A DNA stretch of 64,000 nucleotides from Actinomycetes bacterium (GTDB lineage Bacteria; Actinomycetota; CADDZG01; JAHWKV01): assembly GCA_029263075.1 (NCBI GenBank), contig JAJCYE010000019.1, positions 10,454-74,453 on the forward strand. Reading direction: 5' to 3'. The notes under the pieces were generated by a model. It ran no database searches. It saw nothing but the letters and a program-made list of their open reading frames with translations, and was not told the origin of the DNA. Below, one piece after another: positions 35,538-41,014 of this stretch (within the stretch, counting starts at the first letter, position 1; every line of letters begins with the position of its first letter). Made by a program: the position numbers and the translations under genes.

Positions 35538-35801
35538 TCAGGCTCTGCGCCTGCCGCCCATAGAGCCTTCGGCCACCCCGATTAACAGGACGGCGACAAC
35601 GACGGCCAGGACGAATCCGAGGAAGTTCAACTCTGTGATGCTGCCGGTGCCCAGCAAGCTGGCGATCCAGCCGCCGACCAACGCGCCGACCACCCCGAGC
35701 ACCATTGTCATCAAGATTCCCAGCGTCTGTTTGCCCGGTTTTATCAAACGAGCAAGTGCTCCGATGATCAGTCCAACTATCAACAATCCGATTATGGCCA
35801 T
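35538..35801 (-). CDS. GlsB/YeaQ/YmgE-family stress-response membrane protein
   Basis: MAIIGLLIVGLIIGALARLIKPGKQTLGILMTMVLGVVGALVGGWIASLLG. The start is Met25 of the track ORF. Confidence 0.7.
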   Translation of the reverse strand: MAIIGLLIVGLIIGALARLIKPGKQTLGILMTMVLGVVGALVGGWIASLLGTGSITELNFLGFVLAVVVAVLLIGVAEGSMGGRRRA

Positions 35802-35890
35802 GTTCTCAGACTCCCTTGCCGTACTCCGGCCCCGACCTGCGGGCGAATGATGTTTCCGTTCGAGCAAGTTCATTCTTTAGTGGCCGCCGA

Positions 35891-37492
35891 CTACCCACGG
35901 CTTCGTTTCCAATCCCTCCGCGTCATTCCTATGAACCGCTTGTCGGATCCAGCAACATTGCGGTGAAGGATGTCGGACAGTGTCATGGTGTCGGTGATTA
36001 TCTCCAATCCCAGGGCTGAAAAGGTGTTCTCATTGAAAATTCTGGGAGCAAGTAGCGGGTTGGTGAAAGCCTGGGAGAACGCATCGATGCCCACCATGCG
36101 TCCTATGAGTGAAGGAAGTACGGAGTTGGGTCGAATGTCTTCGGCGTACAGGCCGGTATAAAACTCGATCCGGTCGACGGATCCATAGAGGCTTTTCAGC
36201 GATTCCTGCACCTTGGGGTCGCCCGAGATCTGGTTGAAGGCAGTTACCCGGGGATATCCGCACAGCTCGCGGTAGTCGTTATAGCTCGCCAGGTTCACCG
36301 CCCGACCCTTCTCGATACTCCAGATCTGGACCTGGCGCAAAGCCGGGTCGGTGTTGAAGAGGCGGATCTTGCCGGCGGCTTGGTTCGAGGCGTCTTCCAT
36401 CAACTGGCCCAAGCCGTTCTTGGTCAACATCTCGGTCTGGTAAAGGGTGTCGGCCACCGGCACATTGTCGCCCGCGATGCGGTAGGTACCCGGCACCAGC
36501 GGGTGCCAGCGGTAGACGAGATTGAACTCCACTGCCATCCAGTTGGGGCGGTACCAGGGGGGATTCTTAAAGCTGGCGGGGTTGGCCCGGAACTGGAAGT
36601 GATACGGGGTGATGTGGTTGATGTACTCCTCCACAACGATCTTGATCAAGAGCACGATAAGGACGTTGCGGGCAGTCTCGAAAAGGCGATCGTCGTCCCA
36701 ACTCGGGTATTTGGCGGCCAGTTCCCGTGCGACCCGGTTGTGTTCGCGGAAGAACAGCACGTTCATCAAGACGAACCCGAGTTGCAGGTTGGCGGTGTCG
36801 CTGCCGACGGCAAAAAACTTCGCCAACTCCTCCGGCTTAAAGTCGGGCTTGAGGTTGGTGGGCACGTCGGGGACCTTGGAGAACTCGGCCTTCTTCTTGC
36901 CGGATTCGTCGTATGCGTATTCGGGGTACTCCTCGCCGCCGATGGTTTGGAACTTCAGCAGGCCGCCGTCATGAAGCCTGAGTTGGTCGGTTACATCGGG
37001 AGTCAGCCCGTAGATCTGCATGAGGTCGATTTCGTGGTTGGAGTCGTTCTTGCGGGGGTCGGGCGGGTGTGCCCGGTCGCTGCGCAGGAATCCATCGGTG
37101 AACCAGGCGGCAAAGTAAGAAAAGAGCACCGTCGACTTGTCGGATGAGATGACCTTGCCGTTCTCCCTGAGGAAGATTTCGGCCACGTCCCCGGGATCGG
37201 GAAGGTCGCTCAACGCTTGAGCGGGTGGGGGGAGGTGCCGGCTGCTGTAGCGACGGTTGGAGAGAGATTCCCAACTGGTGTAGTCGGATCGGGTGCTGAA
37301 TGGGTTCGGCCTGAAGGGCATCTTGGCGGTCGCCCGGTCGATCAACTTGCCGTTAACTATCCGTTCCAGTGCCGGCTGGTGTTGAAGCGTCTTCCAGACG
37401 AAGCCGTAGCCGGTGAGCAGCTTAGCCTCCAGGATATTGGCTTTGCCGTCGGCACTCGTATCCCTGTTTTCGATTACCGAACCTTGCGCCAT
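35891..37492 (-). CDS. Cyclooxygenase-like fatty-acid heme dioxygenase (animal heme peroxidase superfamily; COX / alpha-DOX / linoleate-diol-synthase branch)
   Basis: FFREHNRVARELAAKYPSWDDDRLFETARNVLIVLLIKIVVEEYINHI aligns with COX LREHNRVCD...IKIVIEEYVQ. EFNLVYRWHPLVPG matches the COX YHWH / LDS YRWH catalytic Tyr plus proximal His. The distal-pocket FTHQF motif is FTDGF here. Confidence 0.8.
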   Translation of the reverse strand: MAQGSVIENRDTSADGKANILEAKLLTGYGFVWKTLQHQPALERIVNGKLIDRATAKMPFRPNPFSTRSDYTSWESLSNRRYSSRHLPPPAQALSDLPDPGDVAEIFLRENGKVISSDKSTVLFSYFAAWFTDGFLRSDRAHPPDPRKNDSNHEIDLMQIYGLTPDVTDQLRLHDGGLLKFQTIGGEEYPEYAYDESGKKKAEFSKVPDVPTNLKPDFKPEELAKFFAVGSDTANLQLGFVLMNVLFFREHNRVARELAAKYPSWDDDRLFETARNVLIVLLIKIVVEEYINHITPYHFQFRANPASFKNPPWYRPNWMAVEFNLVYRWHPLVPGTYRIAGDNVPVADTLYQTEMLTKNGLGQLMEDASNQAAGKIRLFNTDPALRQVQIWSIEKGRAVNLASYNDYRELCGYPRVTAFNQISGDPKVQESLKSLYGSVDRIEFYTGLYAEDIRPNSVLPSLIGRMVGIDAFSQAFTNPLLAPRIFNENTFSALGLEIITDTMTLSDILHRNVAGSDKRFIGMTRRDWKRSRG

Positions 37493-37541
37493 TGACCATG
37501 TTCCTTCCGGCTGGGGGCGGTGACCGCCCGCGAACTATCGG

Positions 37542-38831
37542 TTAGGCGGTTGGGACCCCGGCGTTGCCGAAGCCGAACCAGAAGCTTTCCGGGAACGGAC
37601 CCCCGTGAAAGTCGATCTTGCCCTCAGGCGGGGGCAGCAGGTGCACGTTGGGTCTCAGAAGGATACGGCGGACGGCTTCTGGGACGATGACCGACCCCAC
37701 ATATTTGCCTAGGCAGGTGTGGTGGCCGTAGCCGAAGTGCAGGCTGAGATGGTCCGGGCGGTCGGTCCGGAAGTCTTCGGGATCTTCGAACAAGTCGGCG
37801 TCGAACCCCGCGGACGAGGTGCAGGCGAATACCAGGGTCCCGGCCGGGATCACCGTTTCCCGCTCGGTTCCGGCAGCGATGGTGTATTCCTCGACCGAAA
37901 GGCGGAAGATCAGCGGGTTGATCGGGTTGTGGCGCAGGCCTTCCCACACGTAGGCGTCGAACGCGGCCATGTCCTCGCCGTGTGCCGCGGCGACCGCCTC
38001 TTCATGGATGCCGGGCCTCAGCAGGATCTGTTCCAGCGACTGGGCGATGGCCTGTGAGGTGGTTTCGCCGGTTCCTACAAGCAATCCCATTATGTTCGAG
38101 AGCAACCGTTCGTCGTCGAACCCGATCTCGTCCGGGAAGTGGGTGCGGACCAGGCGGCTGAATGTGTCCTGGGGCGGGTCGCCGTAACCCCCGCCGGCCT
38201 CGCGTTTTTCGGCCAGGAGCCCGGTCAGGTACTGCTTCATCTCCTCGCCTGCCCGGACTGCCGCCTCGTGGATGGCCGGGTCGTTAAGCAGGTTCTTGAA
38301 CATGTTGGTCTGGGTGGCCTTGGACCAGCGGTACATCGACTCGAGGTTTGGTCCGGGGAACCCGAAGTACTCGCCCACGATGTTTATAGGTACGTAGCGA
38401 CAGAGGTTGTTGATCGCTTCGATCTTGCCCTCAGGGGCGGCGGTGTCCAGGGCCTTGTCCGCAAGTATTCCGGCCGCCTCCCTTACCGCAGGTAGATCCT
38501 CCGGCCGCAGGACCGCCTGCATGATCCCCTTCTCCCGCCAGTTGATGGGGGTGGCGTCCCGGGCCAGCATAAAGGGCCCCACCACCGGGTCCATGTGGGG
38601 CTGGTAGGGCCGCACGGTAAATACCTTCTCGCGCGATAGAACCTCGGTGACGTCCGGAAAGCGGGTGACGAAGGTGAAGTTGGGGGTTTTGAGAATGGGA
38701 CGTTGTTCCCGCAACTCTTTGAAAAATGCGGCCCAGTCGGTGCGGATCCACTTCAGGGCGAGTCCGACCTTGGTCTGGTCGTCGGCGGCGTCGTACTGAT
38801 CAAGAAAGCTGGCGGTCTGGGTGTCCGGCAA
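37542..38831 (-). CDS. Cytochrome P450
   Basis: Heme loop HFGYGHHTCLGKY; EEYTIAAGT I-helix region. The TTG start (codon 87 of the track ORF) has GGAGG 7 nt upstream. The track N-terminus (Arg/Pro-rich) is read-through of the promoter region. It lies 50 nt upstream of, and co-oriented with, the dioxygenase. Confidence 0.8.
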   Translation of the reverse strand: MPDTQTASFLDQYDAADDQTKVGLALKWIRTDWAAFFKELREQRPILKTPNFTFVTRFPDVTEVLSREKVFTVRPYQPHMDPVVGPFMLARDATPINWREKGIMQAVLRPEDLPAVREAAGILADKALDTAAPEGKIEAINNLCRYVPINIVGEYFGFPGPNLESMYRWSKATQTNMFKNLLNDPAIHEAAVRAGEEMKQYLTGLLAEKREAGGGYGDPPQDTFSRLVRTHFPDEIGFDDERLLSNIMGLLVGTGETTSQAIAQSLEQILLRPGIHEEAVAAAHGEDMAAFDAYVWEGLRHNPINPLIFRLSVEEYTIAAGTERETVIPAGTLVFACTSSAGFDADLFEDPEDFRTDRPDHLSLHFGYGHHTCLGKYVGSVIVPEAVRRILLRPNVHLLPPPEGKIDFHGGPFPESFWFGFGNAGVPTA

Positions 38832-39018
38832 AATTTGGCCTCCAAGCAGCGTGATCCGGCGCCGGCCTGTGGGTTCTTTCGGCGCTCCCTCGTAGGATCC
38901 CGCTCTCTGGAGATCTTGGGGAGAGCCTAAAACTTTTGGGGTGCGGGTCAAGGGGGATGGCGGAGGTAATCGCCTCAAAAGTGGGTGCCCAAGGTACCCA
39001 CTTGCCCGGCGGAGGTAC

Positions 39019-39363
39019 CTAGTCCTCTTTGCGCTTCCAGGAAGCCTTGCGCTCGGGCCGGACCCGGATCTGCGATTGTTCGGAGCCAACTCCTTTTGAG
39101 ATCACCTCGGCGACGCCGGTGACCAGCACGCCCCATTTCGGTTTCCCGTAGATGAGGATTGAGACCCGGGGGTCGGCTTCGATGTTGCGCATTTTTGCGG
39201 CGCTGGAGTCGGTCTCGAACCGTAAGTAGCCACTCTCCCAGCGCACGCCTACCGGCGCGGCGTGCGGGTACCCGTCGCGGCCGTTGGTGGTGAGGATTCC
39301 GACGGTTCGATCCGTTCGCTCCCGCTCCCAGTCCTCGAAATGCGGTCCAGCCTTATCGCTCAT
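39019..39363 (-). CDS. Pyridoxamine 5-prime-phosphate oxidase-like (split-barrel, possibly F420-dependent) protein
   Basis: 114 aa; VGILTTNGRDGYPHAAPVGVRW ... RVSILIYG pattern of the PPOX-class split barrel. Confidence 0.55.
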   Translation of the reverse strand: MSDKAGPHFEDWERERTDRTVGILTTNGRDGYPHAAPVGVRWESGYLRFETDSSAAKMRNIEADPRVSILIYGKPKWGVLVTGVAEVISKGVGSEQSQIRVRPERKASWKRKED

Positions 39364-39833
39364 CGGTTCTGCTCCTGTCGGGCGATGACCTCAACTTCGT
39401 TGCCCTCCGGGTCGTCCACGTAGAAGGTTCTCACGTCCGGCAACACCGGGTGGATGCCCTGACGGACGTTGAGCCCGTAGGTGCGGCAGATCTCCTGGAG
39501 TTCGTCGTAACGGGAAGGGTTGACCGCGAAGGCCAGGTGGTGAAGAACCCGGGAGGGTTTATCGGAAGGGAAAGCCGGAGCCTCCTGGGGGTGCGGAAAC
39601 AGCACAATCATCTGGGGCACTCCGCCAGGGCCGGTGCCGGCGCTCAAGAACTTGGCTTTGAAATCCGGTTCCGAGATCATCTCCAACCCAAAAAGATCGC
39701 GATAGAACCGCAGCGTAGCGTCCATGTCGCGGGTCCACAGCACGATCTCGGCGAGTCCGAGGACCGTGCGTTCGGGGTCAGGTTCGGGCAAGCCGGCCCG
39801 GGCTCCGGCCGGTCGCTCGGTGTTTAGTGGCAA
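39360..39833 (-). CDS. VOC (glyoxalase/bleomycin-resistance/dioxygenase) family protein
   Basis: LAEIVLWTRDMDATLRFYRDLFGLEM ... HHLAFAV ... DDPEGNEVEV. The start is uncertain; a TTG about 39791 is plausible. The track start overlaps the metallothionein-like gene by 10 nt. Confidence 0.65.
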   Translation of the reverse strand: MPLNTERPAGARAGLPEPDPERTVLGLAEIVLWTRDMDATLRFYRDLFGLEMISEPDFKAKFLSAGTGPGGVPQMIVLFPHPQEAPAFPSDKPSRVLHHLAFAVNPSRYDELQEICRTYGLNVRQGIHPVLPDVRTFYVDDPEGNEVEVIARQEQNR

Positions 39834-39964
39834 CCTTCGTGCCCACAGCCGCAGTCGTGGGCGACGTGACCTTCGTGGGAACCGTGCTTGGCGCAGTAGT
39901 CGCTGCAGTAGCCGTCTTCACGAGCCTCACACTTGCAACCTTCGTGACCACACTGCTGAGCCAT
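39824..39964 (-). CDS. Small Cys/His-rich metal-binding protein, metallothionein-like (46 aa; 9 Cys, 7 His)
   Basis: MAQQCGHEGCKCEAREDGYCSDYCAKHGSHEGHVAHDCGCGHEGCH. A strong RBS AAGGAGG lies 5 nt before the ATG. It is hidden as the C-terminal 46 codons of the spurious 340-aa antisense ORF 39824..40846. Confidence 0.55.
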   Translation of the reverse strand: MAQQCGHEGCKCEAREDGYCSDYCAKHGSHEGHVAHDCGCGHEGCH

Positions 39965-40072
39965 AGCCGCCTCCTTCGAGTCCGTTGCGTCGGGTCCGCA
40001 CGTTCGCTGCCTACGATACTTCGGTTGGCTATCCGGGGCACCAGGTACGAGGTTTCCGATAACCTGTTGCCC

Positions 40073-41014
40073 ATGCCTAGAGATGATGGTTTGTTGAAGA
40101 TCGGGATCTCCCAGTGCCTGTTGGGAGCCGAGGTCCGCTACGACGGCGGCCACAAGCGGAACAGCTTCATCGTTGATCTGTTGGGCCCGTATTTTTCCTG
40201 GGTCCCGGTGTGCCCCGAGGTGGAGGCCGGAATGGGGGTTCCCCGGGAAGCGGTATCGCTGCGTTCCTCCGAAGGCGGCCCCCGGGTGGTCGGCAGTGAG
40301 ACGGGTACGGACCACACCGAGGCATTGGAGCGGTTCACAGTCCAAAAGCTCGAAGACCTTGCCGGCGTCCCGTTGAGGGGGTACGTACTCAAAAGCGGTT
40401 CGCCGAGCTGCGGCAAAGCGGTTCCGGTGGAGGGTGCCGAGCCGGCGCCGGGTCTTTTTGCCCAGGCCCTGCGAAAACGGTTTCCCTCCCTGCCGGTGGT
40501 TGAAGAAACCGAGTTGGCCGACTCCGCGGGCCGTCAGAACTTCGCCGAACGGGTTTTCGCCTACGACCGGCAGCAAAATTTCTTCACGAGCCAGCGCAGT
40601 ATCGGCCAGTTGGTCATGTCGCACGCCCAGGTAAAACTCCAACTCGAGGCCCACAGGCCGGGCCTCCACGACGAGGTGGCTGAGACCTTCAAGCAGGCGA
40701 ATGGGTTGTCTTACGAAGAGTTGGGGGCCCGATATCTGGCCGCCATGATGAAGGCGTTGGAGGAGCCGGCTACCCCGGCTGGTCACTTCGCCGTCCTCAA
40801 GACGATTTTTGAAGGGGTCCGCAAGAACGTGGAACCGGCGGTCCAAAAGGAGCTGGCCAGGGCGCTGCAGGATTACAGGCAGGGAAACGTCCCGCTGGCG
40901 GTCCCCCTGACCCTCTTAAGACACTACGTGAGGGTCCAGGAGAACCCGTTCTTCAACAGCCAGACCTACCTGGAGCCGGAGCCGAAGGAACTGTTGTTGA
41001 GAATCACGGTTTAG
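40073..41014 (+). CDS. DUF523/DUF1722 (YbgA-family) protein
   Basis: MPRDDGLLKIGISQCLLGAEVRYDGGHKRN... matches the DUF523 N-terminus, and the C-terminal half is DUF1722-like. The start is Met83 of track ORF 39827..41014. Confidence 0.7.
   Translation: MPRDDGLLKIGISQCLLGAEVRYDGGHKRNSFIVDLLGPYFSWVPVCPEVEAGMGVPREAVSLRSSEGGPRVVGSETGTDHTEALERFTVQKLEDLAGVPLRGYVLKSGSPSCGKAVPVEGAEPAPGLFAQALRKRFPSLPVVEETELADSAGRQNFAERVFAYDRQQNFFTSQRSIGQLVMSHAQVKLQLEAHRPGLHDEVAETFKQANGLSYEELGARYLAAMMKALEEPATPAGHFAVLKTIFEGVRKNVEPAVQKELARALQDYRQGNVPLAVPLTLLRHYVRVQENPFFNSQTYLEPEPKELLLRITV

Follow-up and report, generated by a model that had tools for sequence, protein, structure and literature searches.

A cytochrome P450 gene paired with a cyclooxygenase-like dioxygenase gene in an actinobacterial genome: a candidate bacterial oxylipin module

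Introduction

Oxylipin biosynthesis is well mapped in animals (cyclooxygenase, COX, with CYP8A or CYP5A), in plants (lipoxygenase, LOX, with CYP74) and in fungi (fusions of a dioxygenase, DOX, with a cytochrome P450, CYP). The characterised bacterial systems found in the literature searched comprise only a di-haem operon of Pseudomonas, a few lipoxygenases and one cyanobacterial pair of a DOX and a catalase-related enzyme. Here we describe a stretch of 64,000 nucleotides from the genome of an actinobacterium (contig JAJCYE010000019.1 of assembly GCA_029263075.1; the whole stretch is referred to as the window) in which a cytochrome P450 gene lies directly upstream of a gene for a COX-like haem dioxygenase. 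We consider it likely that the two genes constitute a functionally coupled lipid dioxygenase and P450 module, and probable, with somewhat less assurance, that they form a two-gene transcription unit (promoter, P450, DOX) making oxidised fatty acids via a hydroperoxide. Conserved in several phyla, such a DOX-P450 module would give bacteria a further way of making diols, epoxy-alcohols or volatile cleavage products, new among the known ones.

Among the bacterial members of the DOX family only the 10S-DOX of Nostoc punctiforme has been characterised; it converts oleic and linoleic acid to the 10S-hydroperoxides, and its partner, a catalase-related 10S-hydroperoxide lyase, has a gene of its own (Brash et al. 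2014, J Biol Chem 289:13101, via PMC13049297). The enzyme carries FTDSF at the position of the COX motif FTHQF, and Ile483 and Ala487 at those of COX Gly526 and Ser530 (PMC13049297). An earlier review referred to “bacterial cyclooxygenases” as purely putative sequences (PMC4420034). In Pseudomonas aeruginosa the oleate 10S-dioxygenase PA2077 and the 7,10-diol synthase PA2078 belong to the RoxA-like group (PMC4496055), and two reports describe the Pseudomonas oxylipins as quorum-sensing and biofilm signals (PMC5155153, PMC6377657).

The literature searched, of which coverage was partial and which is hence no proof of novelty, contained no description of a bacterial DOX-P450 pair or of the P450 clade treated here. 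The original prediction had called two-gene modules of this type essentially uncharacterised, which is true of the P450-DOX pairing in that literature and too broad with regard to the pair of 10S-DOX and catalase-related lyase described in 2014.

The COX-like dioxygenase

Both open reading frames of the original prediction are present on the minus strand (Table 1), and its placement of the 533-amino-acid protein in the COX branch of the haem peroxidases is borne out. The protein matches the Pfam family An_peroxidase (PF03098) with an E-value of 1.5e-48 (166 bits, cut-off 25). In a phmmer search of the PDB the best match was COX-2 (E 1.4e-71; residues 25-516 of the DOX against 64-548 of the COX-2 chain), followed by COX-1 (E about 1e-63), while lactoperoxidase, myeloperoxidase and plant alpha-dioxygenase scored far weaker (1e-19 to 1e-8, with 2.6e-8 for the alpha-dioxygenase 4kvj). 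The alignment with COX-2 begins at the COX membrane-binding helices, N-terminal to which the DOX has nothing; it contains neither an EGF domain nor a signal peptide. The block REHNRV...IKIVVEEY, previously said to align with COX, does so column for column (REHNRV with REHNRV, IKIVVEEYINH with IKIVIEDYVQH of COX-2), and equivalents of COX Tyr348 and Tyr355 lie within the match.

The location of the Tyr and His of the YRWH motif was examined as a check that could have overturned the original prediction. LVYRWHPL aligns with TLYHWHPL of COX, placing Tyr327 at the catalytic Tyr385 and His330 at His388. In the distal pocket FAAWFTDGF aligns with FAQHFTHQF. The proposed counterpart of FTHQF is thus indeed FTDGF, with Asp133 at the position of His207; COX Gln203, however, is the Gln of FAQHF, where the window protein has Ala129, and not the residue following His207 as had been assumed. 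Both YRWH and the Asp at the His207 position are invariant in 81 of 81 family members examined, most of which have Gln at the Gln203 position. The columns of COX Gly526 and Ser530 are occupied by Val467 and Ala471, and that of Arg120 by Thr55.

Cyanobacterial DOX genes with a gene for a catalase-related protein (mini-catalase) after them share 51-54% identity with the window DOX. The published motifs of 10S-DOX are FTDSF, IMxxYIxxITPY and RxxSxIPAxxARxIGxDAFxQA (PMC13049297). Their counterparts at the substrate site of the window protein, FTDGF, VVEEYINHITPY (numbered VVEEY290INHIT295PY) and RPNSVLPSLIGRMVGIDAFSQA (with RMV467GIDA471), are close to this set, the comparison being one with the published motifs and not with the full Nostoc sequence. 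Because of this motif match and the identity to the cyanobacterial genes, the protein is assigned to the known, barely studied bacterial 10S-DOX or “bacterial cyclooxygenase” family. Within the peroxidase-cyclooxygenase superfamily it belongs to Family 4, the branch of bacterial and animal cyclooxygenases, to judge by its An_peroxidase score, its alignment over the COX catalytic domain and its YxWH motif. It shares with the Nostoc enzyme the distal Asp (FTD[S/G]F), the YxWH motif, the departures from COX at Gly526 and Ser530, and the division of the pathway between two genes, the second of which encodes the haemoprotein that would act on the hydroperoxide. It differs in the replacement of Gln203 by Ala, in its actinobacterial (Acidimicrobiia-like) host and in its partner, which is a P450 encoded upstream instead of a mini-catalase encoded downstream.

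In comparison with animal COX-1 and COX-2, which likewise precede a P450 (prostacyclin or thromboxane synthase), the window DOX retains the membrane-binding helices, the catalytic Tyr, the proximal His and the equivalents of Tyr348 and Tyr355. It lacks the distal His and Gln as well as Gly526, Ser530 and Arg120 and is therefore not a cyclooxygenase proper (prostaglandin H synthase). Nor is it a DOX of the fungal linoleate diol synthase type, in which the distal His is kept, the membrane-binding region is different and a Lys is conserved. The original prediction expected dioxygenase chemistry in spite of the lost distal His. This expectation fits the Nostoc 10S-DOX, which is active with FTDSF (PMC13049297); as that enzyme shares the loss, it provides no argument against dioxygenase activity in the window protein, for which such activity is predicted by analogy.

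More than 2,700 DOX homologues were scored, and 494 genomes in the GTDB species set (185,579 species genomes) encode a relative. Public annotation refers to these proteins only as “peroxidase family protein” or “prostaglandin-endoperoxide synthase 2”. The best 80 loci of the 494 genomes, which constitute the DOX-seeded locus survey, belong to Actinomycetota (Acidimicrobiia, Solirubrobacterales, Pseudonocardiales, Streptosporangiales and Frankia), Cyanobacteria, Chloroflexia, Planctomycetota, Verrucomicrobia and Abditibacterium. The closest relatives of the window DOX were found in metagenome-assembled genomes (MAGs) of Actinomycetes and Acidimicrobiia.

The companion cytochrome P450

The second gene encodes, as proposed, a cytochrome P450 with the Cys loop FGYGHHTCLG (Cys373), co-oriented with the DOX gene and preceded by a GGAGG motif ahead of a TTG start codon. 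It matches Pfam PF00067 with an E-value of 1e-15 (57.9 bits, cut-off 22.8). The I-helix reads GTGETTS with the acid-alcohol pair Glu256-Thr257, and the ExxR motif is EGLR (E297-R300). The public gene call, from an NCBI-derived collection, gives the identical 429-amino-acid product, and alignments with orthologues start at residues 1-10. The best sequence match in the PDB is PikC (1.8e-20, phmmer), and the AlphaFold2 model has a pLDDT of 85.7. None of the solved P450 structures among its fold matches exceeds 25% sequence identity to the protein. It is a member of no named family. Members of a Streptosporangiales subgroup have E-S or E-N in place of E-T in the I-helix.

In sequence and fold, compared with P450s of known structure, the P450 lacks the features of the CYP74, CYP8A and CYP5A class, which converts hydroperoxides or endoperoxides; it is related to CYP8A and CYP5A only at the superfamily level. 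In most CYP domains of the fungal fusions the place of the acid-alcohol pair is taken by Asn, by Thr or by a non-polar residue, while the window P450 has Glu-Thr.

Co-occurrence of the two genes

A second check that could have gone against the original prediction concerned the co-occurrence of the two genes in other genomes. The P450 was searched with tblastn against the 80 DOX loci, of which 76 have enough upstream sequence to judge; genes in high-GC loci were called with a caller filtered by G+C content at the third codon position (GC3) and by tblastn with defined queries. A full-length orthologous P450 gene (47-82% identity) was detected directly upstream of the DOX gene and on the same strand in 35 of the 76 informative loci, which span Actinomycetota, Cyanobacteria and Planctomycetota. 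Most of these (25 of 35) are Streptosporangiales with an extended cluster (Nonomuraea, Streptosporangium, Sphaerisporangium, Thermomonospora, Actinomadura and others), and two further Streptosporangiales loci contain the pair only (L021, Streptosporangium; L022, Thermomonospora, with a partial P450 match). The pair was also found in a Pseudonocardiaceae MAG, a Kineosporiaceae MAG and other actinobacterial MAGs, in three cyanobacteria (L043, L053, L074) and in the planctomycete Singulisphaera (L071). In metagenomic relatives the link is kept in rearranged form, with the DOX gene preceding the P450 gene in L088 and L161 and the two genes convergent in L090-93. Pairwise distances of the P450 and DOX proteins are correlated, with r = 0.94 for the whole set and r = 0.78 when only the ten pair-only loci are taken (Mantel p about 2e-4). 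Chance adjacency was considered as an explanation and rejected by the synteny survey.

The extended Streptosporangiales cluster (25 loci within L044-L080) consists of the P450 gene, the DOX gene, a gene for a 718-amino-acid protein and, in 24 loci, a gene for an 88-amino-acid protein. A divergent fatty-acid desaturase gene (PF00487) lies ahead of the P450 gene in 22 of the 25. The 718-amino-acid protein showed only a weak acetoacetate-decarboxylase-like match (PF06314, E 2.8e-4), and the 88-amino-acid protein had no match in Pfam. A flavin amine oxidase gene often follows the cluster on the opposite strand.

Partners are distributed patchily on the DOX tree. A catalase-related gene follows the DOX gene only in L032-34, L036, L068 and L041, and no catalase-like gene was found near the window pair. 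Closely related cyanobacterial DOX genes are accompanied either by a P450 gene (L053) or by a catalase-related gene (L068, L032-34, L036), an apparent swap of partners at equivalent positions, in which the catalase-related form has the arrangement published for the hydroperoxide lyase. Among the DOX loci without a P450 gene, those of Solirubrobacteraceae (L005, L008, L011, L014) carry directly upstream and on the same strand a gene for a protein of about 816 amino acids (e.g. L008:4569-7019(+)). This protein, whose N-terminus resembles a signal peptide and in which Pfam recognises no domain, may be another DOX partner.

Three independent apparent fusions with an N-terminal P450 and a C-terminal An_peroxidase domain, as resolved by Pfam (P0245, P0250 and P0263; 911-979 amino acids), were among the best hits when 1.84 billion representative proteins were searched with a profile. 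P450 representatives with E-values of 1e-30 or less number 783. In P0263 the DOX moiety is without its first 60 or so residues, and since the DOX start is missing this protein is presumably a real fusion rather than a read-through product. The linkers of P0245 and P0250 are about 30 amino acids long. Among the more distant relatives retrieved with the P450 profile are seven proteins with a DyP-type peroxidase at the N-terminus and a P450 domain at the C-terminus (889-955 amino acids; Table 1) and three with an N-terminal GST-like domain and a C-terminal P450 domain (P0318, P0327, P0338; 685-701 amino acids); further ones of 660-930 amino acids carry unannotated extensions.

The fungal DOX-CYP fusions (linoleate diol synthases, Ppo, DOX-AOS and DOX-EAS) resemble the window pair in combining a COX-related DOX, with the catalytic Tyr in YRWH, with a P450 that has an HxCxG Cys pocket, the dioxygenase acting first and the haem-thiolate enzyme second (PMC13049297). 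In these proteins the DOX is N-terminal and the CYP C-terminal in one chain, whereas the window has two genes 49 nt apart and the bacterial fusions have the reversed order. The P450-DOX architecture would work like the fungal fusions and the Nostoc DOX-catalase pair, yet is a distinct variant. A 2026 review of the fungal enzymes postulated an “ancient bacterial CYP once fused to a peroxidase-COX member” (PMC13049297), for which the P450-DOX module is a concrete candidate.

Other oxygenase partners of the P450 clade

A survey seeded with the P450 (reverse look-ups and a metagenome scan) yielded 87 loci in 53 clusters at 90% identity, of which 43 could be judged. In 38 of these 43 clusters the P450 gene adjoins a gene of one of three unrelated oxygenase classes, namely RoxA-like di-haem cytochromes c (24 clusters), COX-like DOX (11) and lipoxygenases (3). 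Every informative P450 at least 60% identical to the window P450 is linked to a DOX, and those linked to RoxA-like proteins (Table 1) are 37-56% identical to it.

The RoxA-like partner (PF21419, two CxxCH motifs) is usually encoded upstream of the P450 on the same strand, and these loci suggest a second, uncharacterised bacterial oxygenase-P450 module. The PA2077/PA2078 operon of P. aeruginosa, a bacterial two-gene system of dioxygenase and hydroperoxide isomerase acting on oleate, belongs to this broad RoxA-like family, members of which are the commonest neighbours of the P450 clade. It differs from the window pair in its entirely different protein folds (c-type di-haem, exported) and in that a dioxygenase paralogue, and no P450, performs the second step. 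In the lipoxygenase-type loci of Nostoc and relatives (L082:6001-9835, L098, L100, L101) a gene for a 669-amino-acid lipoxygenase (PF00305) follows the P450 gene on the same strand, with a DUF1304 gene between the two in L082 and L098; these loci would be a bacterial pair of a LOX and a P450 other than CYP74.

A gene for a small SnoaL_2/NTF2-like protein recurs next to the P450 gene (L086:7406-7804, L087:5340-5906) and lies upstream of it also in L095, L096 and L099. The SnoaL_2/NTF2-like fold includes enzymes of the limonene-epoxide-hydrolase type, and one may speculate that this neighbour hints at an epoxide intermediate.

An improbable alternative is that the pair acts on a lipophile other than a fatty acid, such as a polyisoprenoid, a carotenoid or a secondary metabolite, in which case the analogy to oxylipins would be misleading. 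RoxA, the namesake of the commonest partner class, cleaves polyisoprene (PMC4496055), the Streptosporangiales cluster includes two proteins of unassigned function (the 718- and 88-amino-acid ones), and the P450 is distant from every P450 of known structure. However, the only characterised member of the DOX family uses oleate and linoleate (PMC13049297) and the substrate-site residues are largely kept in the window protein; furthermore, a desaturase gene is adjacent in 22 loci and lipoxygenase is an alternative partner of the P450. A fatty acid thus appears to be the more plausible substrate.

Proposed pathway

The DOX would be a haem b enzyme, probably bound to the membrane on its cytoplasmic side. 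An unsaturated C16-C18 fatty acid is predicted to lose an allylic hydrogen to a tyrosyl radical at Tyr327, next to the proximal His330, and the addition of O2 would then give a fatty-acid hydroperoxide. We infer the substrate and the regiochemistry by analogy to the Nostoc 10S-DOX, according to which the product may be the 10-hydroperoxide of oleate or linoleate. Since Val467 and Ala471 replace Gly526 and Ser530 and Asp133 replaces the distal His, neither a prostaglandin endoperoxide nor a COX-type peroxidase step would be expected, and the hydroperoxide would be released.

The co-inherited P450 presumably takes up the released hydroperoxide. That the DOX product is the substrate of the P450 is suggested by the partner swap, the desaturase-bearing cluster, the three oxygenase classes and the lack of a ferredoxin or reductase gene in the window. 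The P450 would most likely use the O-O bond of the substrate as oxidant, in a peroxide-shunt or diol-synthase-like reaction independent of NAD(P)H and ferredoxin, and form a diol, an epoxy-alcohol or a cleavage product. We put the chance of a direct reaction of the P450 with the hydroperoxide, with no redox partner involved, slightly below even. Still more tentative is the wider proposal that the P450 clade is a previously unrecognised family of dioxygenase companions which, for all their canonical class I sequence, convert hydroperoxides without redox partners and have been recruited repeatedly to unrelated hydroperoxide-forming enzymes, the split and N-fused forms being the bacterial precursor of the fungal DOX-CYP fusions. 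If it applies, oxylipin pathways are far more widespread in bacteria than the single examples of Pseudomonas and Nostoc. The P450 might also serve to test if an intact Glu-Thr pair is compatible with the role of a dedicated hydroperoxide isomerase. Being soluble or monotopic bacterial proteins, DOX and P450 should be easy to express.

Several observations weigh against parts of this pathway. With regard to the coupling of the two genes, 41 of the 76 informative DOX loci are without the P450, among them the second-closest relative (L002), so that the DOX does not need it. The correlated distances of the two proteins may largely reflect the shared phylogeny of the species. The three fusion proteins are all singletons on short metagenomic contigs, and two of them could be read-through artefacts. 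The AlphaFold2 model of the DOX, built from a 14-sequence alignment, had a mean pLDDT of 53, too poor for a fold search. With regard to the chemistry of the P450, its model is nearest to redox-partner-dependent bacterial class I P450s (CYP107, CYP134, CYP142 and CYP109; TM-scores 0.72-0.78), and no affinity to CYP74, prostacyclin synthase (PGIS/CYP8A), CYP5A or CYP152 was seen among the 50 best Foldseek matches listed and the 60 listed phmmer hits in the PDB. Across the clade Glu256 is invariant and Thr257 at least 90% conserved, which together with the normal Cys loop amounts to a canonical P450. A signal peptide or lipobox marks the di-haem partner of the RoxA-type loci as exported, whereas a signal peptide is absent from the P450, so that a direct hand-over cannot be general. 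The original prediction had the P450 isomerise the hydroperoxide, as in fungi. The conserved pairing with a DOX agrees with this assumption, but the sequence gives no hydroperoxide-isomerase signature and shows no hallmarks of the fungal, plant or animal P450s that convert hydroperoxides, and it is from the genomic context only that we infer the isomerase role and the P450 chemistry as a whole.

In consequence of its canonical motifs and class I fold affinity, the P450 sequence is fully compatible with a conventional O2- and NAD(P)H-dependent hydroxylase or epoxidase. The main rival explanation, which we regard as rather unlikely, retains the pathway and replaces its second step by a ferredoxin-dependent, O2-activating P450 that introduces a hydroxyl or epoxide group into the fatty acid or into the hydroxy acid left after reduction of the DOX product, and that would be neither an isomerase nor a lyase of the hydroperoxide. 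The clade-wide Glu-Thr pair and the class I monooxygenases as nearest sequence and fold matches agree with such an enzyme, as does the extracytoplasmic RoxA-type partner, which fits the use of an imported and probably already reduced product by the cytoplasmic P450. However, no ferredoxin or reductase gene was detected by open reading frame and Pfam analysis in the window P450-DOX unit, nor was one found in the conserved Streptosporangiales cluster. Actinobacterial P450s are often served by unlinked ferredoxins. Related DOX genes swap the P450 for a catalase-related lyase, and three unrelated folds are represented among the hydroperoxide-forming enzymes to which the clade is linked; these two observations suggest the peroxide itself as the common substrate, and direct conversion of the hydroperoxide by the P450 is preferred here.

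Transcription unit and genomic surroundings

In the window the P450 gene and the ATG of the DOX gene are separated by a spacer of 49 nt, in which no terminator-like site was detected; in the closest relative (L001) the stop codon of the P450 gene overlaps the start codon of the DOX gene. Two candidate regulatory elements were identified by comparison with L001 and by a search for repeats, while a scan of the P450-DOX region with sigma-70 and terminator consensus sequences reported nothing useful. The promoter-like element lies 93 nt upstream of the P450 start and is the only match of its kind in the window (0.03 expected by chance). Both of its hexamers and their spacing are kept in the orthologous intergenic region of L001, where the surrounding DNA has diverged. 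The putative terminator hairpin is located just after the PPOX stop codon and parts the upstream VOC-PPOX genes from the pair. With the hairpin and the promoter-like element upstream of it, the pair looks like a transcription unit of its own, possibly reaching into the GlsB-like gene. The latter starts 17 nt after the DOX stop codon and may be co-transcribed; it adjoins the pair elsewhere only in L001 and is not a conserved part of the module.

Table 1. Features of the P450-DOX region in the window and loci of the comparative surveys
Feature	Position or loci	Strand	Basis or remark
Transgly_assoc (GlsB/YeaQ/YmgE-like) small membrane protein	35538..35873	-	PF04226; NCBIfam PRK10457
Predicted COX-like haem fatty-acid dioxygenase (DOX), 533 amino acids	35891..37492	-	Open reading frame; PF03098; COX-2 alignment
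P450-DOX intergenic spacer, 49 nt	37493..37541	-	Sequence; GGAAGGAA ahead of the DOX ATG
Companion cytochrome P450, 429 amino acids, TTG start	37542..38831	-	Open reading frame; PF00067
Shine-Dalgarno sequence GGAGG, 7 nt before the P450 TTG start	38839..38843	-	Read from sequence
Promoter-like element TTGACC-16 nt-TAGGCT	38924..38951	-	In the 187-nt PPOX-P450 gap; putative function
Terminator-like hairpin, 11-nt arms, 3-nt loop, then TTTT	38979..39003	-	Inverted-repeat search and sequence; putative function
VOC and PPOX-class F420-type genes, 4-nt overlap	39019-39833	-	VOC glyoxalase/Fos-like
Cys/His-rich open reading frame, 46 amino acids, MAQQCGHEGCKCEAREDGYCSDYCAKHGSHEGHVAHDCGCGHEGCH	39824-39964	-	Metallothionein-like look
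Longest open reading frame with 2-thiouracil desulfurase domain and DUF1722	39827-41014	+	PF04463
RoxA-linked P450 loci, part 1	L081, L085, L086, L102-L103, L107, L110-L111, L113-L117, L119-L120, L122-L132		
RoxA-linked P450 loci, part 2	L134, L136-L140, L142-L144, L148-L149, L152-L155, L159, L166-L167		
Streptosporangiales cluster, gene example	L065:4470-5474	-	
Streptosporangiales cluster, gene example	L045:8560-10716	+	
Streptosporangiales cluster, gene example	L076:10785-11051	+	
DyP-P450 fusions	P0296, P0307, P0341, P0345, P0353, P0354, P0391		

The original prediction placed the pair in a small island of redox and stress genes. The PPOX-class, VOC, GlsB-like and Cys/His-rich neighbours are indeed present, but in the DOX locus survey the window neighbours other than the P450 recur only in L001, with which the window shares the local order PPOX - P450 - DOX - PHA_gran - YgjP. 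These redox and stress neighbours are lineage-specific and lie outside the conserved module. Their presence could be taken to indicate that the An_peroxidase protein serves as a peroxidase in stress or antioxidant defence and that the P450 is an unrelated neighbour. In DyP-type enzymes an Asp is the distal acid-base catalyst, a role that Asp133 would then play, and fusions with DyP peroxidases occur among the more distant relatives of the P450 clade. We consider this explanation highly improbable, given that the neighbours are restricted to L001, that the catalytic Tyr is invariant, that the linkage to the P450 is kept across phyla and in fusion proteins, and that the hairpin and the promoter-like element part the pair from the VOC-PPOX genes. 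A lipid dioxygenase coupled to the P450 remains the favoured interpretation.

The G+C content of the P450-DOX region (0.604) shows no anomaly with respect to the values along the window (0.598-0.658). The flanks are housekeeping genes. To one side lie ilvB, an ABC transporter gene and ilvD; to the other lie an MMPL gene, sufS and a gene of NifU-like (sufU-type) character. The names ilvB, ilvD and sufS are our own reading of the translated open reading frames. A horizontally acquired stress island was considered and rejected in view of the unremarkable G+C content, the housekeeping flanks and the synteny with L001.

The VOC protein showed weak matches to the NCBIfam models of FosB and FosX, and the VOC-PPOX genes appear to form a unit of their own ended by the hairpin. 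The 46-amino-acid Cys/His-rich open reading frame had no Pfam match and ends 9 nt inside the longest VOC open reading frame. Since the beginning of the 2-thiouracil desulfurase/DUF1722 open reading frame runs antisense to the metallothionein-like region, its true start is probably located well downstream of position 39827.

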